The notes under the pieces are model-generated. The model was not told where the DNA came from. It searched no databases and worked only from the letters and a program-made list of their open reading frames with translations. Made by a program: the position numbers and the translations under genes. From a virus: a DNA stretch of 64,000 bases. This document shows, piece by piece, positions 1,394 to 58,487 of the stretch. The DNA lies in the IMG/VR virus record IMGVR_UViG_3300042330_000875, positions 64,001-128,000 of that record. The stretch is one strand, 5' to 3'. Numbering within the stretch: the first letter of the stretch is position 1; each line of letters starts with the position of its first letter.

Positions 1394-1726
1394 ATGACAC
1401 ATGTTTATTATATTGATGGAAAGAAATTTACAACAAATAATTATGGTGATATTCCTCGGTATGAAATTTCATCACCAAATGAAGAAACACCAGCTTATGA
1501 AGACACAATTGCTGGTTATAAAGAATGGCACGAAAAAGATTGGATTATTCATAGATTAACCGGACCTGCGAGAATTTGGCCTGATGGAAAAGAAGATTTT
1601 TATTTAAATGATAAAAGATATGAAAATGTAAAAGAATGGTTAAAGGATCATCCAAATCCCGATTTGTATTTTGATGCCTTGGGTATGAATGAAACTGATA
1701 AGGTTCTTTGGTATTTGAAAAATTAA
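1394..1726 (+). CDS. HRLTGPA-family paralog copy 2 (tail A)
   Basis: YYIDG..ISSPNEETPA..HRLTGPA..HPNPDLYFDALGMNETDKVLWYLKN. Confidence 0.9.
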   Translation: MTHVYYIDGKKFTTNNYGDIPRYEISSPNEETPAYEDTIAGYKEWHEKDWIIHRLTGPARIWPDGKEDFYLNDKRYENVKEWLKDHPNPDLYFDALGMNETDKVLWYLKN

Positions 1727-1755
1727 AAAGAGGGAAAGTTAACTTTCCCTCTTTT
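1726..1755. terminator. Bidirectional terminator (perfect 30-bp palindrome)
   Basis: AAAAGAGGGAAAGTT|AACTTTCCCTCTTTT between convergent genes. Confidence 0.85.
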
Positions 1756-1758
1756 CTT

Positions 1759-2067
1759 TTAGATAATAAATTTATTTGGATTTGTTATAATCCCACTAAA
1801 TTGTTCCAAGTAAGGTTGTGATAATTCAGCATCAGCTAAAATAGGTCCAAAAAGAATATTGGAATACCCAATTGGAACTAATGGTTTTTTTTCTTTAGTA
1901 ATTATAACAGGCATAAATCCCATTTGAGTTTCAGTAACCGCTAACATTTGTGGATTTTCCATTACTAATTTTTGATTTTCCACATAGTCGTGACATTTAC
2001 CAATAATCATTTGCCCATTGCTCATAACTACTTGAATAATTTTATCTTTTAAATTTGATTGTAACAT
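1759..2067 (-). CDS. Hypothetical protein, possible Sm-like fold
   Basis: MSNGQMIIGK..LVMENP..GFMP pattern resembles small Sm-like phage proteins; GAGG RBS. Confidence 0.45.
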   Translation of the reverse strand: MLQSNLKDKIIQVVMSNGQMIIGKCHDYVENQKLVMENPQMLAVTETQMGFMPVIITKEKKPLVPIGYSNILFGPILADAELSQPYLEQFSGIITNPNKFII

Positions 2068-2120
2068 TGTTTTTTCCTCTATTTTTTATAGAATAGATAA
2101 AAGTTTAATAAAATTCAATA

Positions 2121-2732
2121 TTAAAAAGATATTTTTTTATTTCTTAAAAAATGATTATAATATTCATTTATATCATGATTTTTTTGATTATCATTATAAT
2201 TTAATAACCATTTGATTATATTAGGTTTTTTTAATTTTTCATTTTGTAAATTAAAAATATCTGTTTTAAAAAACGGTAATATTGTTTTACAATCATCTTC
2301 ATGTGAAAAATATTCTACAAAATCTTTTTTAATAATAGGCATACTTCCGTATGCTCTAATTTTCACATTAAAACCAATAGAGTTTAATCTTTCAGCTAAT
2401 AAGATAGCTAAAATAATACTATTGCCCCAACAAACAATAGTAAATTCTTTATAAGATAATTTTGTTAACTCATTAAAGATTTTATTTATTTCTTTATCTT
2501 TGTTTGTGTTTTTTGGTAATTTTAAAAAATGTTTTTTAACAATTGAAATTATATTATCTTTATTTGTGAAATTTTCACTTATAGCCAAAACCGAATCAGC
2601 TTGGGTAAACATTGATATTTTTAAGTTATCATAAATGTGAAAAGGTATTACACGAATTTCTTGTTCATAAAACAAGTTCGTATAATACCCAAATGGTAAA
2701 CTTAAAGAGTGTAAAAATAATAAATCGTTCAC
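2121..2732 (-). CDS. Hypothetical protein, possibly degenerate lipase-like alpha/beta hydrolase
   Basis: WGNS..LAILLA, AYGSMP and HEDD pattern loosely like class-3 lipases, but GxSxG is incomplete. Confidence 0.35.
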   Translation of the reverse strand: MNDLLFLHSLSLPFGYYTNLFYEQEIRVIPFHIYDNLKISMFTQADSVLAISENFTNKDNIISIVKKHFLKLPKNTNKDKEINKIFNELTKLSYKEFTIVCWGNSIILAILLAERLNSIGFNVKIRAYGSMPIIKKDFVEYFSHEDDCKTILPFFKTDIFNLQNEKLKKPNIIKWLLNYNDNQKNHDINEYYNHFLRNKKISF

Positions 2733-2740
2733 ATGACTAT

Positions 2741-2986
2741 TTAAAAACTATAGGAATAATTCCACTTTTCCCAAATTTGTTCGTATTTTGGATAAGCATA
2801 AACGCAGCGTAAAGTCCAATCTTGATTAAGATTGTCAATTTCTTTTGATTTATTATCCATTTGTTTCATACAATGATCAGAAGAAATTTCAACTGAAACA
2901 ATTTCATGTGAAAGATTCTTATTGCTAAGTGCATTGCCAGGAACAGTGGCAAAACTTGCAAGAAGAAACCAAACGCCAATTTCCAT
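2741..2986 (-). CDS. Hypothetical protein with N-terminal signal-like segment
   Basis: AGGAG RBS; hydrophobic N-terminus. Confidence 0.6.
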   Translation of the reverse strand: MEIGVWFLLASFATVPGNALSNKNLSHEIVSVEISSDHCMKQMDNKSKEIDNLNQDWTLRCVYAYPKYEQIWEKWNYSYSF

Positions 2987-3061
2987 AATTTTTCTCCTTT
3001 TGTTAGATTATTAAAATAATAGATTTTGCATTTTTGTCAATGTTTTTGTTAAGATAAATTT

Positions 3062-3394
3062 ATGAGATACATTTATTACATTGATGGTGAAAAATTTACA
3101 ACCGATAGAGAAGATATTCCTTGGGAAGATATATATTCACCTAATGATAATACATCCGCTTTTGAAAATTTATTAACTGGTCATAAAATTTGGTGTAAAA
3201 GAGGATTTATTCGTCATTGTTTAATCGGACCAGCAACAATTTGGCCTGATGGATCAGAATATTTTTTTATAAATGGTGAACCATATGAAAATATTCATGA
3301 TTGGTTAAAAGATCACCCAAATCCAACATTATATTTTCATAAAATTGGAGTTTTTACAGAAACCGATAAAGTTCTTTGGTACTTACAAAATTAA
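3062..3394 (+). CDS. HRLTGPA-family paralog copy 3 (tail A)
   Basis: Family motifs (HCLIGPA variant); ends TETDKVLWYLQN. Confidence 0.9.
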   Translation: MRYIYYIDGEKFTTDREDIPWEDIYSPNDNTSAFENLLTGHKIWCKRGFIRHCLIGPATIWPDGSEYFFINGEPYENIHDWLKDHPNPTLYFHKIGVFTETDKVLWYLQN

Positions 3395-3876: not shown

Positions 3877-4955
3877 TGCAAAATTTTAATTCAATGACTG
3901 ATTTAGCCATTTTAGTTAATTACATTATTACAAATGGTATTTATTGGGATAAAACGAATTTTGATGAAAACCAAATTTTAAAAAACTTTAATTCTTTAGG
4001 AACTTGGGATAGTAATTTTCTTAAAGATCGGTTAAAAAATTTTCATCAATCAACGATGTTAACCGATAAACAAATCGCTAATTTAACTAGAATTTTAAAT
4101 AATCTTTTAAATGATCAATCTTGTTTTCAATCAATTCTTAATAAAAATGAATGGGAAAATCCTGTTTATGAAAGTAAACCAATTGAATTAAAGGCAAGAT
4201 TTGAAAATAATTCTATTATTTTTCAATGTAAACCTTATCAAGCAAAAACAATTGCTGAACAAGTTTTAGTTTATCAATTACAAGATAATCTTTTTATGAT
4301 GCCTTTAAATTCAAGAAATGTTGAAGTAGTTGATAAAATTTTTATGAATAGTTTTGAGTTTGAAGTTTCTCAAGAATTAATTGATTATGTAGAAAACATT
4401 CCTAATCCAAATGAAATAAGATTTTACATTAAAAACGATAATTTATTTGGATATGAAACTGATTTAAGGTTAAATCATGGATGGTTTGAAAATGCTAATA
4501 TTTATTTAAGAACTAATTTTTTAAGAAATGAAATTAAAAAATATGATATAGTTACAAACATAAATGATTTTTCAGATTATTTTATTGATCCTTTTGAAAA
4601 AGCAAAAAATCGTTTTGATAAAATGAAATATATTATCATTAATTATGATGATTCACATTCGAGAAAATTGGTTGATTTTATTGAAAATTTAAATGAAAAT
4701 GAATACATTTGTTATGATGATGAAATTTACAATGCACTAAAACCAAATTTAATTAATATGATTGAATGGAATAAGAAAAGTGATCGTTGGAATTTTGCAG
4801 ATTATCATAAGCGTTCTTTTATAACCAAAGGTTATTATGATAATTCATTTAGAATGCTTCATGGGATTATTGGTAAATTAACAACCAGTACAATTGTTTT
4901 ACGCCCATTTAATAATTTTACTGAAACTCAGCGATTTGCACAATGTTCAATATAA
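3876..4955 (+). CDS. Hypothetical protein
   Basis: 359-aa ORF coupled to uvsY by TAATG. Confidence 0.7.
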   Translation: MQNFNSMTDLAILVNYIITNGIYWDKTNFDENQILKNFNSLGTWDSNFLKDRLKNFHQSTMLTDKQIANLTRILNNLLNDQSCFQSILNKNEWENPVYESKPIELKARFENNSIIFQCKPYQAKTIAEQVLVYQLQDNLFMMPLNSRNVEVVDKIFMNSFEFEVSQELIDYVENIPNPNEIRFYIKNDNLFGYETDLRLNHGWFENANIYLRTNFLRNEIKKYDIVTNINDFSDYFIDPFEKAKNRFDKMKYIIINYDDSHSRKLVDFIENLNENEYICYDDEIYNALKPNLINMIEWNKKSDRWNFADYHKRSFITKGYYDNSFRMLHGIIGKLTTSTIVLRPFNNFTETQRFAQCSI

Positions 4956-5287: not shown

Positions 5288-5410
5288 GTTATTTCTCCTT
5301 GTTAAAAACAATCAAGAATAAAATGAAATAATAAAAAAGTCAAACAATTAAAATTTAAATTTTGTATTTTTATTCATTAACTGTTATTTTTAAAAAATAA
5401 GAGGTAACAA

Positions 5411-8854: not shown

Positions 8855-9256
8855 ATGAGTAATGTAGTTTTTGATCCACACGCAAGAGAACAAAAAGAAG
8901 CAACTTTTGAACGAGTTATTGAAAATGTTAATCCATTTGAAAATGATAGCATTTGGACACAAAAGTTAGCTTTAAATTGGAGCGTGTTAGCGGTTTATGA
9001 TTGTAGTAAATTGGAAAATATGTTTGGCGTATTTCCTGAAACTGCAAAAATTGCTGATTATTTTAAACAACAAAACATCGATGTTTATGTTGAAAATCTT
9101 CCTTGGATTAATCGTTATGGTAAAAACGGCATGAAAATGAACAAACTTAAACCAGCCGATCATGTAATTAGAGTTTATGCTAATTCAAAAGAAGTTTTAG
9201 AAAATTCACCTTTTGAATGGGTTCAATTTCAAATTAAGGATGAAAAATATTCTTAA
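8855..9256 (+). CDS. Hypothetical protein
   Basis: AGGAG RBS, 133 aa. Confidence 0.7.
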   Translation: MSNVVFDPHAREQKEATFERVIENVNPFENDSIWTQKLALNWSVLAVYDCSKLENMFGVFPETAKIADYFKQQNIDVYVENLPWINRYGKNGMKMNKLKPADHVIRVYANSKEVLENSPFEWVQFQIKDEKYS

Positions 9257-9588
9257 TGTTTATTTATTATGTTGATGGAAATAAATTTACAACCGATAAT
9301 AAAGATGGAATTAATTTTTATGATATTTCATCCCCCAATGATGATATTCCTGCTTTTGAAGATTTATCTGATGGATATAAATCTTGGTTTGAAAAAAAAG
9401 TAATTTGGCATCGATTAACTGGGCCAGCTAGAATTTGGTTTGATGGGACAGAAGAATTTTATTTAAATGGAATTGGTTATCCTTCTATAAAAGAATGGAT
9501 TAATGATCATCCAAATCCCGATTTATACTTCGATGCAATTGGAATAAAAACAGAAACTGAACGAGTTTTGTGGTTTTTACAAAATTAA
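9256..9588 (+). CDS. HRLTGPA-family paralog copy 5 (tail A)
   Basis: TAATG coupling; ends TETERVLWFLQN. Confidence 0.9.
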   Translation: MFIYYVDGNKFTTDNKDGINFYDISSPNDDIPAFEDLSDGYKSWFEKKVIWHRLTGPARIWFDGTEEFYLNGIGYPSIKEWINDHPNPDLYFDAIGIKTETERVLWFLQN

Positions 9589-10189: not shown

Positions 10190-10501
10190 ATGACTTATAT
10201 TTATTATATTGATGGTGAAAAATTTACAACCGATACTAAAAATGAAATTCCTCGTAATGAAATTTCATCTCCTGATGAAATTACACCTGCACTTGAAAAT
10301 TTATCAACAGGAGTTAAAATTTGGTGTAAAAAAGGATTTATTTGGCATCGTTTAACTGGACCAGGGATTATTCTCTCAGATGGTAAAAAAGAGTTTTATT
10401 TAAATGATAAATGTTATTTTAGAAATGTAAAAGATTGGTTAGCAGATCACCCAAATCAAGATAACGCCTTTCAAGTAGAAATGCTTTTAAAATATTCTTG
10501 A
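10190..10501 (+). CDS. HRLTGPA-family paralog copy 6 (tail B)
   Basis: Ends HPNQDNAFQVEMLLKYS. Confidence 0.9.
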   Translation: MTYIYYIDGEKFTTDTKNEIPRNEISSPDEITPALENLSTGVKIWCKKGFIWHRLTGPGIILSDGKKEFYLNDKCYFRNVKDWLADHPNQDNAFQVEMLLKYS

Positions 10502-19496: not shown

Positions 19497-19853
19497 ATGG
19501 ATTTTAAATTAGCAAAAGTATTATATGAAAAAAACGAATTAACACAAGGCGTTATTATTAAAGCAAAATATACGGCAGTTGATATGGCAGGCAGGCATTC
19601 TTTTGAAACCATAGATGAATTTTTAGTAATTTATGCTTCTATTAAGGCAGAAATGTTAATTTTACATTGTAGTCATAAAAAATCAGGTATGCGAAGAAAT
19701 TTAACACATGATTGTATTTTAGAAATTAATGGCATGACACCTGATAGAATTGCTGATAGTATTGATTTAACAATTGATGGAAATGCTAAAAAAATAGGCA
19801 ATAAACGTGGAAGAAAAACAAATGAAGAGCGCGCAAGGTTAGCTAATTTATAA
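19497..19853 (+). CDS. Hypothetical protein
   Basis: GGAG RBS; KRGRK basic tail. Confidence 0.7.
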   Translation: MDFKLAKVLYEKNELTQGVIIKAKYTAVDMAGRHSFETIDEFLVIYASIKAEMLILHCSHKKSGMRRNLTHDCILEINGMTPDRIADSIDLTIDGNAKKIGNKRGRKTNEERARLANL

Positions 19854-20182
19854 TGTTAATTTATTATATTGATGGTGAAAAATTTTACACTGAAGATTTT
19901 GATGATATTCCTCTGCATGATATTTCTTCACCTGATGAACAAACACCCGCATTTCAAGACAGTTTAACAAGTGAAAAACTTTGGTGTGAAAAAAATTATC
20001 GTTGGCATCGATTAACTGGACCAACATTAATTCGTCCAGATGAAACTGTGGGATTTTGGTTAAACGATAAAAAATACCATAATGTCCGGGATTGGATTAA
20101 AGAACATCCAAATCCAGATTTATATTTCGATGCATTAGGTATGAATGAAACAGACAGAGTGTTATGGTTTTTACAAAATTAA
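19853..20182 (+). CDS. HRLTGPA-family paralog copy 8 (tail A)
   Basis: TAATG coupling; ends NETDRVLWFLQN. Confidence 0.9.
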   Translation: MLIYYIDGEKFYTEDFDDIPLHDISSPDEQTPAFQDSLTSEKLWCEKNYRWHRLTGPTLIRPDETVGFWLNDKKYHNVRDWIKEHPNPDLYFDALGMNETDRVLWFLQN

Positions 20183-34863: not shown

Positions 34864-34952
34864 TTTTATTTTCCTTCTTTAAAACTCTTGACATAAGCTA
34901 ACTTGGATGTTAAAGTTTGTCAATTGAAAAAACGGAAAGAATAGAAAATTTT

Positions 34953-35294
34953 ATGAGTTTAACATATTTTATTGATGGAAATTCTAAATTAACCAAAGAA
35001 TATTCCAAAGTATTATTATCAATTCCTTATTATAATGATAAAACCTTAGATAATATTAACCTTAATAGTTTATTTTTTTATTTAACTGGAAAAGAAAATA
35101 TTGATGTACCAAAAAATTTTTACAATACTATTTTGTCATTTTTTGATTTAGAAGAAATTTATTTATTATATCCATTAGGTAATTTTGAAATAAAAAGTAT
35201 TAATCAAGAAAATAATGTTAACTTATTTAATTTTGAAATAAAATTTACTTTTAATAATAGTACCGATGAATTACTTTATATTTTGAGGAAATAA
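34953..35294 (+). CDS. Hypothetical protein with C-terminal tag
   Basis: Likely ATG at 34953; ends NSTDELLYILRK. Confidence 0.65.
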   Translation: MSLTYFIDGNSKLTKEYSKVLLSIPYYNDKTLDNINLNSLFFYLTGKENIDVPKNFYNTILSFFDLEEIYLLYPLGNFEIKSINQENNVNLFNFEIKFTFNNSTDELLYILRK

Positions 35295-36537: not shown

Positions 36538-36870
36538 ATGTATGTTTATTATATTGATGGTGAAAAATTTACAACCAATAATAAAGATGAAATTCCTTGG
36601 TGGAAAATTTCATCTCCCGATGAAGACACCCCTGCTTTTGAAGATTTATCTGATGGATTTAAAGCGTGGTGTTTAAAAAATGGATTTGGGGATCGTTTAA
36701 TTGGTCCTGCAAAAATTTGGTCTGATGGAAGAGAAGAATTTTGGTTAAATGACAAACGATATGAAAACGTAAAGGAATGGATTGCAGATCATCCAAATCC
36801 TGATTTGTACTTTCACAATATTGGTATTTTTACTGAAACCGACAAAGTTCTTTGGTTTTTAAAAAATTAA
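36538..36870 (+). CDS. HRLTGPA-family paralog copy 11 (tail A)
   Basis: Ends TETDKVLWFLKN; terminator at 36871-36898. Confidence 0.9.
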   Translation: MYVYYIDGEKFTTNNKDEIPWWKISSPDEDTPAFEDLSDGFKAWCLKNGFGDRLIGPAKIWSDGREEFWLNDKRYENVKEWIADHPNPDLYFHNIGIFTETDKVLWFLKN

Positions 36871-37309: not shown

Positions 37310-37615
37310 TTAATTTTTTAAATCCCAAAGAACTAATTCAAGATTGGTTGGTTCAATTTCGATTGCAATTAAATCATGTGGATATGGATTAATAGAAGTA
37401 AAAATATCATACATTATAAGGCTATCTAATTTTATTAATTTAACAATTTTAAAATGTTTTTTAATTTCATCTAATAAATCAATCATACTTTTATTATGAA
37501 ATTTATTAGAAATTGTATTATTGATATAATCAATATCATAAGAAGTAACATTACCAACAGCTACAATTTCATCTATTAATTTTATATTTTTTCCATAATG
37601 TATATATTTTATCAT
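37310..37615 (-). CDS. Hypothetical protein with C-terminal tag
   Basis: Ends TNLELVLWDLKN. Confidence 0.65.
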   Translation of the reverse strand: MIKYIHYGKNIKLIDEIVAVGNVTSYDIDYINNTISNKFHNKSMIDLLDEIKKHFKIVKLIKLDSLIMYDIFTSINPYPHDLIAIEIEPTNLELVLWDLKN

Positions 37616-40664: not shown

Positions 40665-41512
40665 TTTTGCTCCATTATTTTTTTAGTTAGTCTTAAAATT
40701 TGTTTTACACCAAGGCCATGTTTATATATGTTATTTGTTTTAAAATTAGTTTCTTCTTTATCCAAATATATTTTATTAATTTTAACAGAAAATGTTTTTT
40801 CATAAAGGTCAACTAATTCTTCAATAGAAATATTTTCATTATTAGCCAAATCAAACGTTGTGTTTCTAATATAACTATCCATTTCAAATTGTTTCATTAA
40901 ATCATTAATATAAACGAAATTTTTTACACCAGAATTATTTTTAGGAATAAAAAATTCTTTATTTTTCAAATCTGCATTTATTAATGTTGGGATCAATTGA
41001 TTTTGATTCATTGTATCAACAAGGTTATTATAACAACCAGCAATATTATAAAGACGATAAATTTTATAATTTATTTTTTGATAAAATATTTTTAATAAGT
41101 CTTCTGCTGCTAATTTTGTTTCGCCATATGGTGATAATTTTTCTTCATAAACATAACATGTACTTGGTAAAATAAAATCAATTTTTTTATTTTTAAATTT
41201 GTTTAAAAAATTAAACAATTGATAATAATGATTGTCCCAAGTTTCTTTTGGATTTAAAATAGAATTTTTTACTGAAGGATTGCCTGCAAAATGCAAAATT
41301 TTATATAAATTTTTTATTTTATTTGTTTTTTCAATAAATCTGTGATCGTCAAAACTCATTTGAAAAAATTCATCTAAAGAATTTTTAACAAAATGATTTT
41401 TTGGTTCATTTAAATCACAACCAATTATTTTATAATTTTGTTTTTTAAAATAATAAGCGGCATGTGATCCAATGTATCCTGAACAGCCTGTTATAATGAT
41501 AGTTTTATGCAT
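40661..41512 (-). CDS. NAD-dependent epimerase/dehydratase (GalE-like)
   Basis: TGCSGYIGSH, HFAG, YGETK, RLYNIAG. Confidence 0.85.
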   Translation of the reverse strand: MHKTIIITGCSGYIGSHAAYYFKKQNYKIIGCDLNEPKNHFVKNSLDEFFQMSFDDHRFIEKTNKIKNLYKILHFAGNPSVKNSILNPKETWDNHYYQLFNFLNKFKNKKIDFILPSTCYVYEEKLSPYGETKLAAEDLLKIFYQKINYKIYRLYNIAGCYNNLVDTMNQNQLIPTLINADLKNKEFFIPKNNSGVKNFVYINDLMKQFEMDSYIRNTTFDLANNENISIEELVDLYEKTFSVKINKIYLDKEETNFKTNNIYKHGLGVKQILRLTKKIMEQK

Positions 41513-41822
41513 TTTGTAATAAGAATAAAACTTTATCTGTTTTAGATCGCCAAAATACTTTACATGTAATTCCTGGATTTTTACAAATGTAAAATTTTAC
41601 TTTGCCATATTTTTGTAATTTTTTAATTTTGTTAGCGTATAAAGAATTATACATTTCTGAATAATAATTATGTTGTTTAATGTATCTTACAAGCCATTTA
41701 TTATTATAATAAACAAAGTAATTATCATTAGAAAATTTTATTTTGTTATGAATAATAATTTCATCATTAACAATATCAAAATAAGAATAATAGTTTGGTT
41801 TAAATTTTAATTTATATTTCAT
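41505..41822 (-). CDS. Hypothetical protein with C-terminal tag (tandem paralog)
   Basis: Ends FWRSKTDKVLFLLQNA. Confidence 0.7.
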   Translation of the reverse strand: MKYKLKFKPNYYSYFDIVNDEIIIHNKIKFSNDNYFVYYNNKWLVRYIKQHNYYSEMYNSLYANKIKKLQKYGKVKFYICKNPGITCKVFWRSKTDKVLFLLQNA

Positions 41823-41825: not shown

Positions 41826-42167
41826 TTAACCTTGTTGCAATAAAAATAAAACTTTATCTGTTTTAGATCGCCAAAATATTTTAGCATAACAAACATGAGG
41901 AAATTCATCTTCAATTACTTTTTGATATAATTTTATTTTTCCATGTTTCTTACATAATTCTGTATTTATTAATAAAACATTAAATATCTCTTCAAAATCA
42001 ATCTTGTTATGAGAATAACATAATAAAATTTTCTTTAGCAATGTATTATAATGTTGTATATTTTTAAATGGTAAATCTATAATCTTATTATATTGAATAT
42101 TTCGAGAATATTCTGTTGTAACAAATGAAAAACCAGAATATAATTTTCTCTTTATTTTATATTTCAT
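41826..42167 (-). CDS. Hypothetical protein with C-terminal tag (tandem paralog)
   Basis: Ends FWRSKTDKVLFLLQQG. Confidence 0.7.
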   Translation of the reverse strand: MKYKIKRKLYSGFSFVTTEYSRNIQYNKIIDLPFKNIQHYNTLLKKILLCYSHNKIDFEEIFNVLLINTELCKKHGKIKLYQKVIEDEFPHVCYAKIFWRSKTDKVLFLLQQG

Positions 42168-42787: not shown

Positions 42788-43504
42788 CTATGTGTTTTTT
42801 AATTTGTAAAGTATTTCATCTGTTTCATTATCAAATTTATAAACTAATCCATTGGCTTTATATTGATAAGTATTATTTTGATATTCAATTAATGATAAAG
42901 AAATATACATATGTTTATCAAAACTGAAAAAATCATTTTGGACAATATCCATAACCGGTTTTGGAATATGTGGTAAATTTAAATTTAATAATGGTTCAAA
43001 ACTGTTTAATTTTGTTGAAGTTTCAAATATTTCTTTATGTTTAAATATCCGCATTATGCATTTATTTTGTGAAATATTCAGTCTTTTAACTGGTATGTTT
43101 AAAATTTCATGTGTATTATTAAAATTATATTCATCAATCATATTATTATGAAATGAAACAATAAATTCATTTTTAATTTCTTCAAAATCAGTAATTTTTT
43201 CTTTATAATGTTCATTAGTACAAAAAACAATAGGATTTTTTTCTTTTAATTTTGATAATTTTTCAAAAATAAAATTTAATTTATTGGTATAAGAATGAGT
43301 GTGTAATTCTGGACGATAACGATAGTTATAATTAACCCTTAATGAAATTAAATTTGGATGAATTGTAACATTTTGATCATATCCTGTATCTTCTCGATAT
43401 AAATTATCATTATCATGTAATGTTCCGCCGCCAATTACAAAAATAGTATCGGGATTTAAAACCAAATCTTCTTCAGTAATTAATTTATTTGTTTCATAAA
43501 TCAT
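42788..43504 (-). CDS. Hypothetical protein with C-terminal tag
   Basis: NPDTIFVIGG resembles neighbour N-terminus; ends DNETDEILYKLKNT. Confidence 0.65.
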   Translation of the reverse strand: MIYETNKLITEEDLVLNPDTIFVIGGGTLHDNDNLYREDTGYDQNVTIHPNLISLRVNYNYRYRPELHTHSYTNKLNFIFEKLSKLKEKNPIVFCTNEHYKEKITDFEEIKNEFIVSFHNNMIDEYNFNNTHEILNIPVKRLNISQNKCIMRIFKHKEIFETSTKLNSFEPLLNLNLPHIPKPVMDIVQNDFFSFDKHMYISLSLIEYQNNTYQYKANGLVYKFDNETDEILYKLKNT

Positions 43505-46117: not shown

Positions 46118-46858
46118 ATGTATAGTTCTGATCAAATTTTTTATCATATTTGGAATATTTTGCTTCCGGTTAAAAATCGCAGTGCTGAAACCGCAGGTAT
46201 GTTAACATTATTTGTTGATATAATTCATTATCTTGTTTATAATAAACGTTTAATTAGTGATGATTTTAGAGTTAATCCACAATATAAAAAACGTGGGTAT
46301 TCAAATAATTTACCAACAATTAGTACAAAACTTTTACATGATAAAGGTTTTAATAACAAATTTGATTTTAGTTTAGTTAATAACATTTATAAAACAAATA
46401 TTCCTGATTCATTAAAAGAATTTATTGTATTAGTTTGTGACTATTTTATTGAAAATTATCGAACTATTGGAGTTTTTAAATTAAGATTAGAATTGTCACA
46501 ACATTATCAACAATGTTTTTCTTCTTGTTATATTAAAGAACGAGTACCAAAATGGTATGAATTTTTCAGAGAAGTTGAAGAAACTGAAATTTTTGGTTGT
46601 GTTCATTTAAACCTTGAAACATTAGCAAAAGAATTTCAAAATGAAACTGATTTATCAATTTTTAAAAATAAAAAATTTAAAGAAACAACTAAAAACAATG
46701 AAGTTAATAAGAATAAAGAAACAGTTAGGCGTTTATTAAGTTTTATACGAGAAGATGCCAATCAACAAGAAGCTTTAACTGCAATTTTAAAAGTTAAAGA
46801 ATTAATGGCAAAAGAAAATAAAGATTTTGATAAAATTATATTGGAAAATTTTCAATGA
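46118..46858 (+). CDS. Hypothetical protein
   Basis: 246-aa ORF. Confidence 0.7.
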   Translation: MYSSDQIFYHIWNILLPVKNRSAETAGMLTLFVDIIHYLVYNKRLISDDFRVNPQYKKRGYSNNLPTISTKLLHDKGFNNKFDFSLVNNIYKTNIPDSLKEFIVLVCDYFIENYRTIGVFKLRLELSQHYQQCFSSCYIKERVPKWYEFFREVEETEIFGCVHLNLETLAKEFQNETDLSIFKNKKFKETTKNNEVNKNKETVRRLLSFIREDANQQEALTAILKVKELMAKENKDFDKIILENFQ

Positions 46859-47154
46859 ATATAAAAGAAAAACTATTAGAATTAGATTATAATTTATTTT
46901 CTGATCCAAATTTAAGAATTATTGAATATATGGGCGATGATACATATGAAATGTTTTCATTAGATGAATTAACAAATAGTAATTATTCTGTGTTGGGTTA
47001 TTATAATGATCATATTTTTGGTTTAGTTGCGGAACATTTAAAAGCATTAAAAATTAAACATTATGTTTTTAAATATAAAAATTTGCCCCGTCCGTTTATA
47101 TTTTATTGTTTTTTAACAAATACCGATGAAATTTTATTGAGTTTAATGAAATGA
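46855..47154 (+). CDS. Family-2 hypothetical protein with C-terminal tag
   Basis: Ends FLTNTDEILLSLMK. Confidence 0.7.
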   Translation: MNIKEKLLELDYNLFSDPNLRIIEYMGDDTYEMFSLDELTNSNYSVLGYYNDHIFGLVAEHLKALKIKHYVFKYKNLPRPFIFYCFLTNTDEILLSLMK

Positions 47155-47525
47155 ATAATTTAGAAAAATTTTTTAATAGTGATAATAAGTTTAAAAAACA
47201 TTTATCAAATCCTGATTTAGTTATTATTGATTTGATTGATCAATTAGAAGATACATTTACCAATGAACCATTAACATTTTATCGTTATCATGAACTAGTT
47301 GATACTTTTGATGAAAATAAATTTTATAATTTTGGCAAACCTTGTTCAAAATTTGATATATTTGACAGTATTAGTAATAGTAAAACTATACAACAATTTT
47401 TAAAAATGCATAATAAAAAAATTTATTATAAAACATTTAGAAAAGAAATTGATAAATGTTATCCTAAAGTTTTTTATACATTTTTAACTGATACTGAATT
47501 AGCCATTTGGGATTTGATGAAATAA
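47151..47525 (+). CDS. Family-2 hypothetical protein with C-terminal tag
   Basis: Ends FLTDTELAIWDLMK. Confidence 0.7.
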   Translation: MNNLEKFFNSDNKFKKHLSNPDLVIIDLIDQLEDTFTNEPLTFYRYHELVDTFDENKFYNFGKPCSKFDIFDSISNSKTIQQFLKMHNKKIYYKTFRKEIDKCYPKVFYTFLTDTELAIWDLMK

Positions 47526-47613: not shown

Positions 47614-48063
47614 ATGAAAGTTTATTATGCAGATGGTAGTTGTTTAAACAATCCTGGCGTTGGCGCATGGGGTTTTACTGATTTAACCAATTCAACAGTT
47701 GGTAATGAAATTTATACAACAAATGGACGTATGGAATTAATGGCTGTAGTTGAATGTATAAATCAAATTACTGAAAACAGTACGATTTATTCTGATAGCA
47801 GTTATGTTGTAAAAGGTTTTAATGAATACATACATAAGTGGAAAAATAATACTTGGAAGAAAAAAGGTGGACCAATTAAGCATTTAGATTTATGGATGAT
47901 CGCTGACCGTAAATTAACGGAATTAAAAATTAAAAATATTTCTGTTGACGTTTGTTGGGTTAAAGGTCATGCTGATAATTATGGTAATAATTTTATTGAT
48001 CGTTTAGTTCAAGAAGAAAGTTTAAAAGTGAAAAATGGAAAATCGTTTTATATTAGAAAATAA
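47614..48063 (+). CDS. rnhA: Ribonuclease HI
   Basis: YADGSCLNNPG, TTNGRMEL, SDSSYV, WVKGHA..GN..D. Confidence 0.92.
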   Translation: MKVYYADGSCLNNPGVGAWGFTDLTNSTVGNEIYTTNGRMELMAVVECINQITENSTIYSDSSYVVKGFNEYIHKWKNNTWKKKGGPIKHLDLWMIADRKLTELKIKNISVDVCWVKGHADNYGNNFIDRLVQEESLKVKNGKSFYIRK

Positions 48064-48361
48064 TTTACAAAAATATCTAAAAAATGAAAATTATTATTTT
48101 TTATATATTGTTAAAGGTAAAGGTGTTCTTTCTAATAATGAAGAATATTTATCTGATATATTAAAATATTCTTATGATAATGTTTATTTTAATTGTGCTT
48201 GGTCTTTAATAGAAGACGAATTTAAAAATATATTGGATAAATATTTTCCAATGTTTGATATAAATAAAATTCAAAAAATTTCTTTAATTAAAGAATATTA
48301 TTTTATACCATTTATTGAATTAACTAATACCGATTATTGCATTTATAAATTACAAAATTAG
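48035..48361 (+). CDS. Family-2-like hypothetical protein with C-terminal tag
   Basis: Ends ELTNTDYCIYKLQN. Confidence 0.65.
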   Translation: MENRFILENNLQKYLKNENYYFLYIVKGKGVLSNNEEYLSDILKYSYDNVYFNCAWSLIEDEFKNILDKYFPMFDINKIQKISLIKEYYFIPFIELTNTDYCIYKLQN

Positions 48362-48370: not shown

Positions 48371-48799
48371 ATGATTATTGAACAAATTAAAAATCAAGCT
48401 TTAGTTTTACGCAAAGAAAAAAATCGTTTAGGCGCAACATTAATGACTTTACTAAATGACATTAATATGATTGGAAAAAACGCAATTCCACCAAGAGAAA
48501 GCACTGATGAAGAAGCAGTTCGCGTAATTCGCAAAGCCATCCAAATTCAAGAAGAAAATTTAAAATTAGTTTCCGTTGATAAGAAAGCATCAATTGAAGA
48601 AGAAATTTCATTATTTCAAACATTTTTACCAAAACAATTAACTGTTGAACAATTACGTGAAATTATTGTTAATTTTATTGAAAAAGAAAATTTAGAAAAA
48701 TCACCTAAATCAATTGGGGTTATTATGAAAATGTTGAATAAAGATTATCTTGGTAGTTTTGAACCTAAAACGGCAAATGAAATTATTAAGTCATTATAA
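48371..48799 (+). CDS. GatB/YqeY-domain protein
   Basis: TDEEAVRVIRK, FLPKQL, IGVIMKML. Confidence 0.85.
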   Translation: MIIEQIKNQALVLRKEKNRLGATLMTLLNDINMIGKNAIPPRESTDEEAVRVIRKAIQIQEENLKLVSVDKKASIEEEISLFQTFLPKQLTVEQLREIIVNFIEKENLEKSPKSIGVIMKMLNKDYLGSFEPKTANEIIKSL

Positions 48800-49125
48800 T
48801 GTATGTTTATTATATTGATGGGAAGAAATTTATAACTGAATATAATAGTGTAATTCCTTGGTTAGAAATTTATTCACCTGATGAAAATACACCTGCTTAT
48901 GAAGATTTAGAATATGGGTATAAGTGTTGGTATCAAAACGGTAAAAGACATCGATTGACTGGACCCGCAAGAATGTGGTCGGCTGGAAAAAAAGAATTTT
49001 GGTTAAATGATAAACATTATGAAAAGGTTCATAATTGGTTGAAAGATCACCCAAATCCCGATCTTTATTTTGATGCAATTGGTTTAAATGAAACTGAAAG
49101 AGTTTTGTGGTTTTTGCAAAATTAA
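48799..49125 (+). CDS. HRLTGPA-family paralog copy 13 (tail A)
   Basis: TAATG coupling; ends NETERVLWFLQN. Confidence 0.9.
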   Translation: MYVYYIDGKKFITEYNSVIPWLEIYSPDENTPAYEDLEYGYKCWYQNGKRHRLTGPARMWSAGKKEFWLNDKHYEKVHNWLKDHPNPDLYFDAIGLNETERVLWFLQN

Positions 49126-51914: not shown

Positions 51915-52292
51915 ATGAATAAATTTATACAAAAAATAAAATCATTTTTTATTAAACAAAAAAGATATATTTATTACGTAGATGGTGAAAAATTTACAAC
52001 TAATAAAATCACTACAATTCCTTGGTTTAAACATTCTTCACCTAATGAAAACACGCCTGCTTTTGAGGATTTAAAAACTGGTCATAAACATTGGTGTTTA
52101 GAAGGACATATTCTTCATCGCTTAACAGGCCCTGTTTCCATTTTATCAGATGGAACTAAAACATTTTATGTAAATGGTAAAACATATGACAATGTTCAAG
52201 ATTGGTTAAAAGATCATCCAAATCCAGATTTATACTTCGATGCAATTGGGATGAATGAAACCGATAGAGTTTTATGGTTTTTACAGAAATAA
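51915..52292 (+). CDS. HRLTGPA-family paralog copy 14 (tail A, N-terminal amphipathic extension)
   Basis: MNKFIQKIKSFF extension; ends NETDRVLWFLQK. Confidence 0.9.
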   Translation: MNKFIQKIKSFFIKQKRYIYYVDGEKFTTNKITTIPWFKHSSPNENTPAFEDLKTGHKHWCLEGHILHRLTGPVSILSDGTKTFYVNGKTYDNVQDWLKDHPNPDLYFDAIGMNETDRVLWFLQK

Positions 52293-52296
52293 AAAA

Positions 52297-52615: not shown

Positions 52616-52867
52616 ATGTTTTACGAAGTAATTTTTCATCCAACTCAAATTGAACTAAAATCAATTTCTCCAACTGATTTTTATTTTTATCCTTATGCAT
52701 TATTCAATATAACGCATCAAAAACATTTAATAAATCAATATAGAAAAATCGATTATGATTTAAGTTTTCTTAATCAATCAATTTCTTTATGGTTTTCTAA
52801 AAAAGGCAATTCAGTAATTTATTGGTTAAATCCAACTGATGAAGTTTTATGGAAATTAAAAAATTGA
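52616..52867 (+). CDS. Hypothetical protein with C-terminal tag
   Basis: Ends WLNPTDEVLWKLKN. Confidence 0.7.
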   Translation: MFYEVIFHPTQIELKSISPTDFYFYPYALFNITHQKHLINQYRKIDYDLSFLNQSISLWFSKKGNSVIYWLNPTDEVLWKLKN

Positions 52868-54215: not shown

Positions 54216-55459
54216 TGTCAACAATTCAATGTTTTTTATGTGGTAAAATACAAAATGATAATAAAGAAATATTTGTTTGTAACGAATCATCTGAAAGTCC
54301 AGTATATATATGCGAAACATGTGTAACAACGGCCAATCAAGCAATTCAAGCATCAAAAGAAACCAAACACGAAAATAAGCAAGAAATTAGTGAACAAACC
54401 GATGAAATCGATGAATTAGAAGAAGATGATTTTCCTTATCCAAATGAAATTAAAGAATTTTTAGATGAATATGTTTGTGGACAAGAAGAAGCTAAAAAAA
54501 CCTTATCAGTTGCTTTATTCAATCATCACAATAGAATTCGATCTTTAATGATGGGCCAAGAAACAGAAATTGAGAAATCAAATGTATTATTATTAGGCCC
54601 AAGTGGTTCAGGAAAAACTTATTTGTTAAAAACATTATCTCGTATGTTGGATTTGCCTTTTGTTCATGTTGATGCTACTTCATTTACCGAAGCTGGTTAT
54701 GTAGGTGAAGATGTAGAAAGTATCATTAATAAACTTTATCAAGAAGCAGGTGGTGATGCTGGATTAGCATCTTTAGGTATTGTTTATATTGATGAAATTG
54801 ATAAAAAAGCAAAAAAATCATCTGATAATATTGTTTCAAAAGATATTGGTGGTGAAGGTGTTCAACAATCATTATTGAAATTAATTGAAGGAACTGCTGT
54901 AAACGTTCACATGGGTAAAGGAAAAATGCCTCAAGGACCACAAGCGGTTGTACATACTGATAATATATTATTTGTATTTGGTGGTGCATTTGTTGGGTTA
55001 AAGAAAATTATTGAACGTAGAATTAATAAAGGTAATATTGGTTTTAACCAAACTAAAGAAGAAATAACAACCGATAAAATTCAAATTGAAGATTTATATA
55101 CTTTTGGATTAATACCAGAATTAGTCGGAAGAATTCCGGTTATTGCTGAATTAAAAGCATTAAATGAAAGTGAATTAAAAAATATTTTAACTAAACCAAA
55201 AAATTGTTTAGTTGATCAATATAAAGCTATCTTTGAAATTCACGATTTAAAATTAAAATTTACTGATAATGCATTAACTTTAATTGCAAAAGAAGCAATT
55301 AAAACAAACACAGGGGCTAGAAGTTTACGTAGAATTATGGAAAAAATTTTAGAACCTATTTTATATGATTTACAAAACATTGTTGACAAAGGCTTTAAAA
55401 CTGTTATAGTCAACGAAGAAACAATTACAAACTTTAAACCTATTTTAAAACGGAGATAA
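54215..55459 (+). CDS. clpX: ClpX AAA+ unfoldase
   Basis: C4 Zn domain, KSNVLLLGPSGSGKT, TEAGYVGEDVE, DEIDK, GEGVQQSLLK, IGF loop. Confidence 0.95.
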   Translation: MSTIQCFLCGKIQNDNKEIFVCNESSESPVYICETCVTTANQAIQASKETKHENKQEISEQTDEIDELEEDDFPYPNEIKEFLDEYVCGQEEAKKTLSVALFNHHNRIRSLMMGQETEIEKSNVLLLGPSGSGKTYLLKTLSRMLDLPFVHVDATSFTEAGYVGEDVESIINKLYQEAGGDAGLASLGIVYIDEIDKKAKKSSDNIVSKDIGGEGVQQSLLKLIEGTAVNVHMGKGKMPQGPQAVVHTDNILFVFGGAFVGLKKIIERRINKGNIGFNQTKEEITTDKIQIEDLYTFGLIPELVGRIPVIAELKALNESELKNILTKPKNCLVDQYKAIFEIHDLKLKFTDNALTLIAKEAIKTNTGARSLRRIMEKILEPILYDLQNIVDKGFKTVIVNEETITNFKPILKRR

Positions 55460-55460
55460 C

Positions 55461-55979
55461 TTGAGTAAAATTATTAATGAAGATATTCGTTCCTATCGTG
55501 TGCTTTTAATTGACGAAAATGGAACTAAACTTGGTGAATTTAATCGTAATGCTGCAATCCAAATGGCTTATGAAAAAAATTTAGATTTAGTTCAAATTTC
55601 AATTGGACCAAACGAAATTCCAGTAACAAAAATGCTTGATGCTGGAAAGTATTTTTATGAAAAAGAAAAAACTTTTAAAGCACAACGATCAGCACAACGC
55701 GCAAAAGAAATTCAATTAAAAGAAATTCAATTGCGTCCTGTAACTGATACTGGTGATTTAAATGTCAAAGCCAATCGCACAAAAGAATTTCTATCAGTTG
55801 GAGATTTAGTTAAAATTGTCATGCGTTTTAAAGGGCGTGAACAAAGTAATAAAGCAGTTGGCTTCGATACAATGCAAGAATTTATCGATTTGATTCCCAA
55901 TAATCTTTATACAGTTGAACAACAATTACAAGATTCAGGAAAACAAATTATTGTTGTATTAAAAGGCATCAAACAATAA
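55461..55979 (+). CDS. infC: Translation initiation factor IF3
   Basis: INEDIR..VLLIDENG, LDLVQI, LKEIQLRP, MRFKGRE; TTG start. Confidence 0.92.
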   Translation: MSKIINEDIRSYRVLLIDENGTKLGEFNRNAAIQMAYEKNLDLVQISIGPNEIPVTKMLDAGKYFYEKEKTFKAQRSAQRAKEIQLKEIQLRPVTDTGDLNVKANRTKEFLSVGDLVKIVMRFKGREQSNKAVGFDTMQEFIDLIPNNLYTVEQQLQDSGKQIIVVLKGIKQ

Positions 55980-56315
55980 TTGGCTTATATTTATTATGTT
56001 GATGGTGAAAAATTTACAACCGATGATTACGATGAAGTTCCTAAGTATGATGTTTCTTCACCTGATGAAAATACGCCAGCTTATGAAAGTTTAGAAATTG
56101 GAACAAAAGTTTGGTGTAAAAAAGGTTGGCGTTTGTATAGATTAATTGGTCCCGCCGTTGTTTATATAAATGGTGATTATAATTTTTGGTTAGATGGAAA
56201 ATATTATGGAAAAGATATCAATGCTTGGTTAAAAAATCATCCAAATCCAGATATTTATTTCGATGCAATTGGTTTAAGTGAAACCGAACGAGTTTTGTGG
56301 TTTTTGCAAAATTAA
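55980..56315 (+). CDS. HRLTGPA-family paralog copy 16 (tail A)
   Basis: TTG start directly after infC stop; ends SETERVLWFLQN. Confidence 0.9.
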   Translation: MAYIYYVDGEKFTTDDYDEVPKYDVSSPDENTPAYESLEIGTKVWCKKGWRLYRLIGPAVVYINGDYNFWLDGKYYGKDINAWLKNHPNPDIYFDAIGLSETERVLWFLQN

Positions 56316-56318
56316 TCA

Positions 56319-56347
56319 TTGACAAAAATCAGAAAATTTTCTATATT
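56319..56347 (+). promoter_or_regulatory. Sigma70-type promoter with AGAAAATTTTCT palindrome
   Basis: TTGACA-17-TATATT. Confidence 0.85.
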
Positions 56348-56381
56348 AGTTTATCAAATAATGTAAACAAGGAGAATGTTT

Positions 56382-56573
56382 ATGGATGACTCAACATTTA
56401 AAAATATTTTTCAGAAAATTAACGATTATTTAGATGGTTATCCATTTCATAAAAAACTGCGTTTGCTTCAATTAATTTTAGATAATAATGGCAAATTATC
56501 GGAAAATGATAGCTTATTATTCTCCGATCTTTCTAATGAGCAAATCTCATACATAGAAAATTTAATTGAATAA
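56382..56573 (+). CDS. Small hypothetical protein
   Basis: AAGGAG RBS; terminator at 56576-56605. Confidence 0.65.
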   Translation: MDDSTFKNIFQKINDYLDGYPFHKKLRLLQLILDNNGKLSENDSLLFSDLSNEQISYIENLIE

Positions 56574-56661
56574 CTAAAGAGGGGAATTAAATTCCTCTCT
56601 TTTTTCTTGCGTTTTATATAAACTATGTTAAACTCTTATTATTAACAAAGGAGTTTAAACA

Positions 56662-57855
56662 ATGTTTCCCGATAATCTTACCCTTGATGAAGTAACTCAA
56701 GTAACCAATGATTTTAATAATCAATTGGGTGTTACTGCGTTTTTGCGTGTTGTAAAAGAAGGATATATTGTTTTCAATTATGCGTTTCAAACTCCCGATT
56801 TGTTCCCAAGGATTAATACAAAAGATGTTTTAGAAAATCGTCGTCGTGCAATTTTGCGTGAATGTCGCGGTTTAACCTTTGATCTTAATGGTAATTTGAT
56901 TGCACGTAAATTTGAAAAGTTTTTTAATATGGATCAAATGCCTGAAACGCATCGGTTAGATTTTTCTCGTAATCATCTTATCATGGATAAGTTAGATGGT
57001 AGTATGATTGCGCCTATGTTGGTTGATAACAAAATTATTTGGTCAACTAAAATGGGCGATACCGATATTGCTAAAATTGTTGATAATTTTGTTCAAGATA
57101 AACCGAACTATGCGAGTTTTGTATTGGATCAAATTAAATTAAATCGCACTGTTCTTTTTGAATTTGTCAGTCGTGAAAATAAAGTTGTAGTAGATTATCC
57201 AGAAGATAATCTAATTATGACTGCTATTCGTGATAATATTACTGGCGATTATATTGCGCGTAATATTCAAGAAATGTGGGCAAAAGAATATAATATTCCT
57301 ATTGTAAATGTGTACAATGGAAAAAATATTCATGAATTAGTAACCCAAGCAAAAGATAATTTTGAAGGTTACGTTATTTGGTTTCTGGATAACGATCAAA
57401 AAGTAAAAATCAAGCTAGATTGGTATCTTGTTCGACATCGCGCAATCGATGCTTTAAGTTCAGAAAAGCGAGTTTTAGAATTAATCGTTGCTGATCAAGT
57501 AGATGATTCAATTGCTTTACTTGACGAAAATGATCAAAAAATTCTAATTGATTTTCAAAAGAAATTTTGGAAAAATGTCGATGATTATTCAAAAAATCTT
57601 GAGATTTCAGTAAAAGAACTTTACGAAAATTGCAAAAAAATTGACAATTCTCGTCGTTATTTTGCTGAACAAGTTTCAAAAGAAAATCGTTTAACTCAAG
57701 CTGCTTATTTTGGTTATTTTGAAAATCAATTGTTTAATTTCCAAGATTTTGTTGTTAAGACGATTAAAAAGAAATTAAACAATAAAAATAATATTGAGCA
57801 AGTTCGGGAAATTTTTAAAATTGTTTGGTCAAGGAATACAACTATTGATGAGTGA
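56662..57855 (+). CDS. T4 Rnl1-like RNA ligase
   Basis: RECRGLTF, KFFN, KLDGSMI, FEF..N.VVVDY, EGYV, KIK. Confidence 0.9.
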   Translation: MFPDNLTLDEVTQVTNDFNNQLGVTAFLRVVKEGYIVFNYAFQTPDLFPRINTKDVLENRRRAILRECRGLTFDLNGNLIARKFEKFFNMDQMPETHRLDFSRNHLIMDKLDGSMIAPMLVDNKIIWSTKMGDTDIAKIVDNFVQDKPNYASFVLDQIKLNRTVLFEFVSRENKVVVDYPEDNLIMTAIRDNITGDYIARNIQEMWAKEYNIPIVNVYNGKNIHELVTQAKDNFEGYVIWFLDNDQKVKIKLDWYLVRHRAIDALSSEKRVLELIVADQVDDSIALLDENDQKILIDFQKKFWKNVDDYSKNLEISVKELYENCKKIDNSRRYFAEQVSKENRLTQAAYFGYFENQLFNFQDFVVKTIKKKLNNKNNIEQVREIFKIVWSRNTTIDE

Positions 57856-58183
57856 TATTGAAAAAACAATTGAGTGGTTATTAGAAAACGAAGATTTTAG
57901 AAAAATTTTACAATTAGAAAATCTTCGTTTTTTAGATTTAAAAAATATTGATACTAAAGATATATGTTTAAATTTATATAAATTAGATGAATATTTTAAT
58001 TTTATCCGAGAATTTGGTTCTTTTCCTTATAATTTAATTTTTATTAAAGATTATAATAAAATAAATTTATTCGGAATTGAATATAAACATTTTCATTTTA
58101 ATCATGTTAATAATTATGTTATAATTTATTGTCAATTGGATAATACACAAGAAATTTTATGGAGTTTACATGATGGACAGTGA
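57848..58183 (+). CDS. Family-2 hypothetical protein with C-terminal tag
   Basis: Start MSDIEKT; ends DNTQEILWSLHDGQ. Confidence 0.65.
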   Translation: MSDIEKTIEWLLENEDFRKILQLENLRFLDLKNIDTKDICLNLYKLDEYFNFIREFGSFPYNLIFIKDYNKINLFGIEYKHFHFNHVNNYVIIYCQLDNTQEILWSLHDGQ

Positions 58184-58487
58184 AACAATTGAGAAAATTT
58201 TTAATAATCCAAAAATAATAGAATTAAATAAACCTGATATTTATTTTTTAGACATGCAAATTCTTCCAAATAATATTTTATTATTTAATTTTGATGAATA
58301 TAAACAACATTTACTTAATGATACTTTAATTGGTAATGTATGGTTTTTAGATGAATTAGTCATTCATCTAAAAAATAATAATTTTAAACCAGAAATTTTA
58401 GAAATTGTTATAGATGATTTAATATTTTATGTAGTTTATAGTGAAATATCAAATACTGATTATTGTTTATGGAGATTAAAATCATGA
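58170..58487 (+). CDS. Family-2 hypothetical protein with C-terminal tag
   Basis: Ends SNTDYCLWRLKS. Confidence 0.65.
   Translation: MMDSETIEKIFNNPKIIELNKPDIYFLDMQILPNNILLFNFDEYKQHLLNDTLIGNVWFLDELVIHLKNNNFKPEILEIVIDDLIFYVVYSEISNTDYCLWRLKS

Follow-up and report, generated by a model that had tools for sequence, protein, structure and literature searches.

A conserved C-terminal strand–helix module ends many unlike small proteins of an uncultured, probably giant phage

The ClpX-binding C-terminal tail of SspB and the ssrA tag lack structure and are recognised as extended peptides or by their free ends. In phage T4, gp43, gp33 and gp55 carry C-terminal hydrophobic/acidic peptides ([ST]LDFL[FY]-like) that bind the sliding clamp, one ring-shaped hub. 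For ClpCP, phage SPO1 encodes an adaptor-like protein (PMC6873191). The T4 capsid targeting sequence (CTS) of IPI–III and Alt is N-terminal, is cleaved by the prohead protease, marks virion proteins and addresses the scaffolding core (PMC3012670). Poxvirus ankyrin proteins carry a C-terminal F-box-like (PRANC) or BC-box helix (PMC4353913, PMC9414399, PMC6232478). Here we describe a short C-terminal module, called the tag below, on many small proteins of IMG/VR virus record IMGVR_UViG_3300042330_000875. The window is the whole stretch analysed, 64,000 nucleotides at bases 64,001–128,000 of this 146,077-bp record (27.6% GC). Positions refer to the window unless marked ‘genome’, which counts along the record.

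The tag has the consensus T-[DE]-x-[VI]-[LI]-[WFY]-x-L-[KQ]-N and occurs on about 43 of the roughly 240 genes of the record (~18%). Nineteen of these are paralogs of one family, HRLTGPA, in the form with a C-terminal segment that we call tail B; about 24 others lie outside the family. Carrier lengths range from 76 to 238 aa. An earlier note, made from the sequence alone, had listed eleven non-family C-termini, and all eleven are present in their open reading frames (ORFs). It had also counted nine tagged HRLTGPA paralogs: the family and its tag are borne out, and the number of intact tagged copies in the window is eight. The carriers in the window are:

1394..1726, + strand: HRLTGPA paralog, tail B, modelled with AlphaFold, ends NETDKVLWYLKN
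3062..3394, + strand: HRLTGPA paralog, tail B, ends TETDKVLWYLQN
9256..9588, + strand: HRLTGPA paralog, tail B, ends TETERVLWFLQN
19853..20182, + strand: HRLTGPA paralog, tail B, ends NETDRVLWFLQN
36538..36870, + strand: HRLTGPA paralog, tail B, ends TETDKVLWFLKN
48799..49125, + strand: HRLTGPA paralog, tail B, ends NETERVLWFLQN
51915..52292, + strand: HRLTGPA paralog, tail B, ends NETDRVLWFLQK
55980..56315, + strand: HRLTGPA paralog, tail B, ends SETERVLWFLQN
34917..35294, + strand: non-family carrier, 125 aa, start maybe the ATG at 34953, ends NSTDELLYILRK
37310..37615, − strand: non-family carrier, 101 aa, ends PTNLELVLWDLKN
41505..41822, − strand: non-family carrier, 105 aa, basic, ends SKTDKVLFLLQNA
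41826..42167, − strand: non-family carrier, 113 aa, weak paralog of 41505, ends SKTDKVLFLLQQG
42788..43504, − strand: non-family carrier, 238 aa, ends NETDEILYKLKNT
46855..47154, + strand: non-family carrier, 99 aa, ends TNTDEILLSLMK
47151..47525, + strand: non-family carrier, 124 aa, ends TDTELAIWDLMK
48035..48361, + strand: non-family carrier, 108 aa, ends TNTDYCIYKLQN
52616..52867, + strand: non-family carrier, 83 aa, ends NPTDEVLWKLKN
57794..58183, + strand: non-family carrier, start probably near 57848, ends DNTQEILWSLHDGQ
58170..58487, + strand: non-family carrier, 105 aa, modelled with AlphaFold, ends SNTDYCLWRLKS
63773..64000, + strand: non-family carrier crossing the window end (genome 127773–128057), ends DETNEVLFYLKY

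The position of the tag is strict. Across the whole record, a strict regular expression gave 30 matches and all 30 were C-terminal, 29 of them with 0–3 residues behind and one with 11. With a profile hidden Markov model (HMM) of the tag, every one of the 38 matches above 4 bits lay at most 11 residues from the C-terminus. This holds even on proteins of 170–240 aa. As a safeguard against circularity we ran a leave-family-out test, in which a scoring matrix built from HRLTGPA tags only was applied to the 202 non-family proteins. Fifteen of them scored 20 or more at the C-terminus, where the internal match rate predicts 0.22 and 200 residue shuffles gave a mean of 0.13 and a maximum of 2. The same matrix found no enrichment in internal windows (10 observed versus 7.1 in shuffles) and matched 2 of 186 out-of-frame ORFs. 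Because 15 matches were observed against 0.13 in shuffles, with no internal enrichment, chance is excluded as the source of the tag, and the C-terminal motif claimed in the earlier note stands against shuffled controls.

The shared ending is constrained as protein. We compared nonsynonymous (pN) and synonymous (pS) differences per site between carrier genes. In 18 HRLTGPA tail-B genes the tag had pS 0.53 and pN 0.12 (pN/pS 0.22), and the core blocks of the same genes had pS 0.48 and pN 0.28 (pN/pS 0.59). In 17 other carriers the tag codons had pS 0.50 and pN 0.40 (pN/pS 0.79), compared with pS 0.45 and pN 0.69 (pN/pS 1.51) in an unalignable control stretch. Synonymous sites are near saturation, and the tag is about as diverged synonymously as the core while its amino-acid change is low; both the codons of the tag and the sequence after the stop vary between genes. 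Near-saturated synonymous sites combined with low pN mean that the ending is a protein feature, not repeated DNA. Among 101 distinct public HRLTGPA tail-B proteins the tag is the lowest-entropy 11-residue window (0.48 bits, versus 1.50 in the core), and in ortholog pairs of other carriers tag identity equals or exceeds that of the rest in 8 of 8. The tag is under purifying selection as a protein.

The conserved unit is longer than the ten residues first described. It spans about 20 residues and consists of a hydrophobic strand, a turn of two to three residues and a helix, with no flexible linker. The helix of almost every non-family carrier comes straight after a hydrophobic, strand-like stretch whose last residue is aromatic; a tandem group at genome 20377–21398 has a charged, non-strand segment ahead of the tag. 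The helix itself is ten residues long, with Thr as N-cap, Asp/Glu beside it and Lys/Gln-Asn as C-cap. The hydrophobic residues V, L, W/F/Y and L, spaced at i, i+1, i+2 and i+4, are spread over more than one face of it.

Two carriers were modelled with AlphaFold. The HRLTGPA protein at 1394–1726 (alignment of 39) is predicted as beta-hairpins followed by three short helices, with a predicted local distance difference test score (pLDDT) of 95.4 and a predicted template modelling score (pTM) of 0.83; the tag is the last helix, residues 100–109. Carrier 58170 (alignment of 17 very divergent carriers; pLDDT 87.2, pTM 0.80) is predicted to have two N-terminal helices, two strands, two helices, two strands and the tag helix (residues 95–104). 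The N-capped helix proposed in the earlier note is thus recovered as the last helix of both predictions, which point to at least two different folds among the carriers. Because strand, tight turn and helix follow one another without a linker in compact models, the module fits a structured box of the F-box/BC-box style rather than a free peptide degron. Fold searches of both models (Foldseek PDB, BFVD, VIA-align wide, ESM Atlas) returned nothing above chance; the best results were Z 3.8 and a TM score of about 0.45 to SPOR-like domains.

Apart from the tag, the carriers have little in common. After removal of the last 14 residues, BLASTP, phmmer, iterated profiles and hhalign linked only a few small paralog pairs, and a profile of six carrier bodies scored the other carriers no higher than other small proteins (p = 0.36). 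When two carriers and a carrier profile were searched against sets of 5.8 billion and 1.84 billion proteins, only close relatives from the same lineage were returned. Carrier 42788 has a sole relative from a large protein search, and that relative retains the tag. No carrier was recognisable as an enzyme or structural protein in any of the Pfam and PHROGs scans made, in agreement with the earlier note; 25 carriers, the larger ones included, matched no Pfam or PHROGs family. Many of the ~100-aa carriers may form one hyper-divergent family, and several other carriers are 170–240 aa long. The description of the carriers as unrelated families therefore holds for their sequences without the tag, and is matched by at least two predicted folds, with the alignment of 17 carriers as a caution. 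A single fold common to all carriers was not found, and the helix is in part an integral element of the predicted folds.

The HRLTGPA family provides a comparison within one scaffold. Its core of 88 residues bears either tail B (PDLYFDAIG..ETDKVLWFLQN), which is tagged, or tail A, which is not. The window holds eight paralogs with tail B, six with tail A (...FQVEMLLKYT; ...QDNAFQVEMLLKYT) and one truncated copy. Those lacking the tag are:

10190..10501, + strand: HRLTGPA paralog, tail A (...QDNAFQVEMLLKYS), no tag
4985–5311, − strand: HRLTGPA paralog, tail A
16554–16862: HRLTGPA paralog, tail A
33055–33363, − strand: HRLTGPA paralog, tail A
40353–40664, − strand: HRLTGPA paralog, tail A
52255–52605: HRLTGPA paralog, tail A
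979–1224, + strand: truncated HRLTGPA copy, 81 aa, GTG start, untagged, probably a decayed paralog

Core positions barely covary with tail type (top mutual information 0.41, at position 83). Tails A and B are intermixed on a tree of the core, requiring at least 11 changes compared with 16.1 when labels are shuffled, although the shortness of the alignment and recombination weaken this tree. The tag-bearing tail is an exchangeable module. Since the same core occurs with tail A or tail B, the scaffold can do without the tag helix, although no other part of it is as well conserved. Outside the family only the helix of tail B is shared. Tail A was considered as a second shared tag and rejected, as it is present on HRLTGPA proteins only.

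Public protein searches contain about 280 HRLTGPA members, all annotated as ‘hypothetical’, and the phage of this lineage has about 38 copies. A tblastn search with an HRLTGPA protein against 50,697 cultured phage records gave no match. Comparison with MORN proteins gave no Pfam match up to E = 1; for the model, the best Foldseek row was junctophilin-2 (E = 1.2) and VIA-align Z was at most 3.4.

Two kinds of repeated non-coding element lie near HRLTGPA genes. An ~80-nt conserved element (...CCTCTGTAATGTGCCTCTAA.CGC.TTTAAAC.GCTATTTGAAAGAA...) precedes several of them, at window 1314–1393 and upstream of genome 13720, 40450, 53882 and 97055. A promoter-like element, TTGACA-N(8-10)-AAAATTTTCTATATT, has about ten nearly invariant copies in the genome, including window 49129–49157, 51138–51166, 56319–56347, 44723–44695 (−) and 40243–40215 (−). 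Several of these lie directly 3′ of HRLTGPA tail-B stop codons and none lies directly upstream of any carrier.

The tag also has relatives elsewhere. In close relatives from IMG/VR (L001–L010), the same tag ends HRLTGPA proteins as well as additional orphan bodies. ClpA genes led to three giant-phage records that are more distant:

G001: 155 kb, 35% GC
G002: 203 kb, 40% GC
G005: 342 kb, 39% GC

Blind clustering of C-terminal 14-mers flagged a set in G002, from which an HMM was then built. This HMM matched eight proteins in G002, two in G001 and three in G005, all of them small and all at the C-terminus. Their form is strand-F-x-x-E-x-D-A-A-x-F-x-[LM]-x-[WY], which lines up with the tag at the acidic cap, at an aromatic residue four positions later and at a Leu two positions beyond that. 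Neither HMM recovers the other genome's set, and anchored tag scores were 17.8 and 14.9 within genomes versus 3.3 between them. The bodies of the G002 carriers are unrelated to one another. One protein of this older type belongs to widespread clusters of viral hypothetical proteins; tblastn of the relatives' older-type small proteins against the 50,697 cultured phage records gave no match.

G002 and G005 each have one HRLTGPA homolog, which ends in its own genome's helix type (...SDEVKAHLILLYG and ...TDEEKAYLLF..., respectively):

G002, L139:2866–3180: HRLTGPA homolog with two G-x-x-HR-x-(D)G-(P)A repeats
G005, 160570–160896 (L156 region): HRLTGPA homolog

With a single homolog in each of these distant phages, the 38-copy expansion is specific to this lineage. 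An older strand–helix is present at C-termini in G001, G002 and G005, and the tag is a derived, massively expanded version of it rather than unique to this phage. The earlier note needs amending on this point.

The record is 45% complete according to CheckV, so that the phage genome is probably of giant size, about 300 kb. The phage is uncultured, and DNA near-identical to the record has been seen in lake-water metagenomes of several studies. The phage resembles T4 in having two RnlA-like RNA ligases, UvsX-like and gp32-like proteins and a tail sheath. The record also has sigma-70-like promoters and TATAAATA late-type motifs. Carriers sit in long, tightly packed operons of small genes, and two divergent carrier operons begin at strong matches to sigma-70-type promoters near 44.7 kb. 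Early genes of T4-like phages are usually found in operons behind sigma-70-type promoters; by analogy, the carrier operons would be of early type. The record encodes a complete Clp set (ClpX, ClpA and ClpP) plus two further AAA+ proteins, and one tag-like carrier lies directly upstream of clpP. This carrier was considered as an ortholog of the relatives' WC..NC-type small proteins, for which BLASTP gave no support. The genes concerned are:

54215–55459, + strand: ClpX with C4 zinc-binding domain
17251–19470, + strand: ClpA with Clp_N domain
genome 51090–51698, − strand: ClpP
genome 41233–43344, − strand: double-AAA protein, 703 aa
33769–34863, − strand: AAA protein, 364 aa
56662–57855, + strand: RnlA-like RNA ligase (phrog_562)
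genome 16464–17567, + strand: second RnlA-like RNA ligase (phrog_562) of the same phage

The ClpA N-domain and the ClpX zinc domain are 15–27% identical to those of other phage homologs, and the ATPase bodies 40–51%. A BRCT protein was looked for on the fragment, and none was found. Directly 3′ of the ClpX gene lies an IF3 homolog (55461–55979, + strand), with Pfam IF3_N and IF3_C both above cut-off. A paralog of carrier 5011 outside the window (L012, genome 2151–4409) is split by a 1.9-kb IS607-like insertion with a serine recombinase and an opposite-strand OrfB_IS605/TnpB protein; the first ~100 codons are at genome 2151–2480 and the last 22 codons, with the tag NDTEYVLWLLEQE, at 4341–4409. 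A GC-rich island at window 24000–32000 (38–39% versus 27% GC) contains an IS1595-family transposase (26892–27869, − strand) and a 595-aa protein with GH113, RTX and DUF5648 domains (28898–30685, − strand), which has a 604-aa paralog at genome 135062–136876.

Strict terminal position, constraint on the protein, absence of body similarity and interchangeable tails together indicate that the helix does something common to all carriers. Contact with one partner is the most economical common function, and we tentatively favour, at slightly less than even confidence, the reading in which the tag gives all carriers the same handle for a single shared partner. The module, portable between C-termini and about 20 residues long, would then act as a structured surface at the end of many fast-evolving small proteins, following F-box/BC-box logic rather than that of a floppy degron. 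Through it the HRLTGPA proteins, which we propose to be beta-hairpin binders, and the ~24 orphan proteins would engage the partner, whose existence we infer from the motif, its position, the selection on it, the unlike bodies, the modular tails and the relatives. The genome-wide shift of the tag sequence relative to the older version would fit co-evolution with such a partner.

The earlier note had gone further and proposed an adaptor library docked on a hub. That mechanism is possible. In its fullest form, it would be a constant/variable library in which dozens of hypervariable bodies, the ~38 HRLTGPA proteins included, plug into one phage or host machine and retarget it to many proteins of the host; it would be the equivalent, in a bacterial virus, of the poxvirus ankyrin/F-box proteins. 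ClpXP/ClpAP would be the obvious candidate machine. We consider this form unlikely.

Several observations weigh against a common partner. The analysis identified no hub, neither one of those suggested in the earlier note nor any other partner. The helix is joined to a hydrophobic strand with no linker, is modelled at a pLDDT of about 90 within compact predictions (pTM 0.8), and has the look of an integral element. In non-family carriers the conserved positions are those of helix capping and one hydrophobic face; as they match capping and packing, structure alone could explain them. A single confident fold obtained from 17 divergent carriers hints at one hyper-divergent family. The shift between versions could stem from AT pressure (27.6% versus 40% GC) replacing Ala. 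G001, G002 and G005 have one shared version, in three of four lineages, so the motif does not change with every lineage.

These points lead to the strongest alternative, that the tag is a structural end module only. It would serve one or a few ancient small alpha/beta families as folding nucleus or cap. The bodies of these families would have diverged beyond recognition under diversifying selection, with the module acquired by tail B through recombination and no partner involved. We regard this as quite possible and nearly as likely as the handle. A hydrophobic strand always precedes the tag, the two AlphaFold predictions, helix included, are compact and of high confidence, and the 17-carrier alignment supports one fold. 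The conserved polar positions follow N-cap/C-cap rules, and a homologous ending occurs on conserved small proteins of G001, G002 and G005. The region ahead of the tag also scores marginally above background against the relatives' profile (p = 0.03). What keeps a purely structural role from being preferred is that most carriers have no detectable body similarity and at least two predicted folds, and that the HRLTGPA core folds with either tail, which makes the helix dispensable there. Moreover, the tag is the most conserved segment, even at positions that a peripheral helix normally lets vary, and it stays C-terminal on proteins of 170–240 aa.

Two narrower forms of the handle reading name a destination. 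In one, the tag would tether carriers to the phage ClpX/ClpA/ClpP, either as adaptors delivering host proteins or as a timed degron for early proteins. Variable bodies with a constant tail fit an adaptor library, and the phage encodes ClpP, ClpA with its Clp_N domain and ClpX with its C4 zinc-binding domain, with a tag-like carrier directly upstream of clpP. There is a precedent in the SPO1 adaptor-like protein for ClpCP (PMC6873191), and what Clp genes do in giant phages is an open question (PMC7824862). When the ClpA N-domain was predicted in complex with an entire HRLTGPA tail-B protein, the scores were 0.13, 0.41 and 0.01 for a mark of 0.32, which speaks neither for nor against a contact. 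Known Clp degrons and tethering tails are unstructured, whereas the tag is modelled as a packed helix; the 0–11 residues that follow the motif speak against a free C-terminus being read; and G001 and G005 have ClpA, ClpX and ClpP but only two or three carriers. A Clp link is thus doubtful, with perhaps a small chance of proving right.

In the other form, the tag would send carriers into the prohead for injection with the DNA. The T4-like traits of the phage (RnlA-like ligase, UvsX-like and gp32-like proteins, tail sheath, TATAAATA motifs) make such virion loading conceivable, and the internal defence proteins of T-even phages are diverse and share only a conserved targeting sequence (PMC3012670). 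It is nevertheless quite improbable. The T4 signal is N-terminal and cleaved off, the carriers lie in operons behind sigma-70-type promoter matches, the usual place of early genes, and the cargo would be very large, as over 40 carriers are encoded in under half a genome. This fragment, 45% of the genome, does not contain the head module.

A chance match or a DNA-level repeat (AT-rich codon bias, a 3′ cassette or a recombination anchor) might be suspected in a genome of 27.6% GC whose HRLTGPA genes have conserved ends and repeated flanking elements, but the shuffles, the out-of-frame ORFs and a low pN at a pS as high as elsewhere refute it for practical purposes, and the sequences downstream of tag genes are not alike, which leaves it a negligible chance. 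The remaining probability belongs to other readings, e.g. self-association.

Small orphan proteins make up a large share of giant-phage genomes and are almost wholly unexplained. A tag on ~18% of genes offers an experimental lever: once its reader is found, dozens of proteins would be placed in one pathway. If the reader is a protease or other machine, the carriers would represent a novel route by which phages redirect cellular machinery, through a diversified set of adaptors. If the tag is only structural, it defines a large, previously unnamed superfamily of hyper-divergent phage proteins that can be recognised by their ends. The older version of the module in related phages suggests that the phenomenon is general in large phages.

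No described family matches the tag in the Pfam, PHROGs, protein and fold searches of the carriers. Among the known systems, the T4 CTS resembles it in that a short conserved terminal segment is the sole shared part of diverse, fast-evolving small proteins (PMC3012670). The tag differs, as read from the genes alone, in being a strand plus helix, in having many carriers in early-type operons and in its location, which is C-terminal in all matches and not N-terminal. Clp-binding tails and degrons are alike in being C-terminal and in giving several clients one short motif, and the phage encodes the matching machines. They differ in that the tag forms a capped helix that packs behind a strand and is itself followed by variable residues; far from an unstructured peptide, the helix is predicted with a pLDDT of about 90 in two carriers. 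The clamp-binding peptides of T4 likewise place a motif at the extreme C-terminus of unrelated proteins. Their consensus is different, and their clients are replication and transcription proteins whereas the tag carriers are small orphans; no gp45 C-domain, family B polymerase or clamp gene was found on this 45%-complete fragment.

The poxvirus ankyrin/PRANC proteins are similar in design: a viral paralog family of repeat-scaffold binders with a structured C-terminal helical box, constant in the tail and variable in the body. Their hub is a eukaryotic SCF or Cullin-2 ligase, unlike anything available here, as to our knowledge bacteria have no SCF hub, and the tag is also found on many non-repeat orphans. 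Pfam scans up to E = 1 found no F-box or PRANC profile in the carriers, and the sequences do not match either. The tag belongs to none of the CTS, Clp and poxvirus systems, since position, structure or hub differs in each. It is an undescribed example of a kind of arrangement already known, in which diverse viral proteins share a box at one terminus.

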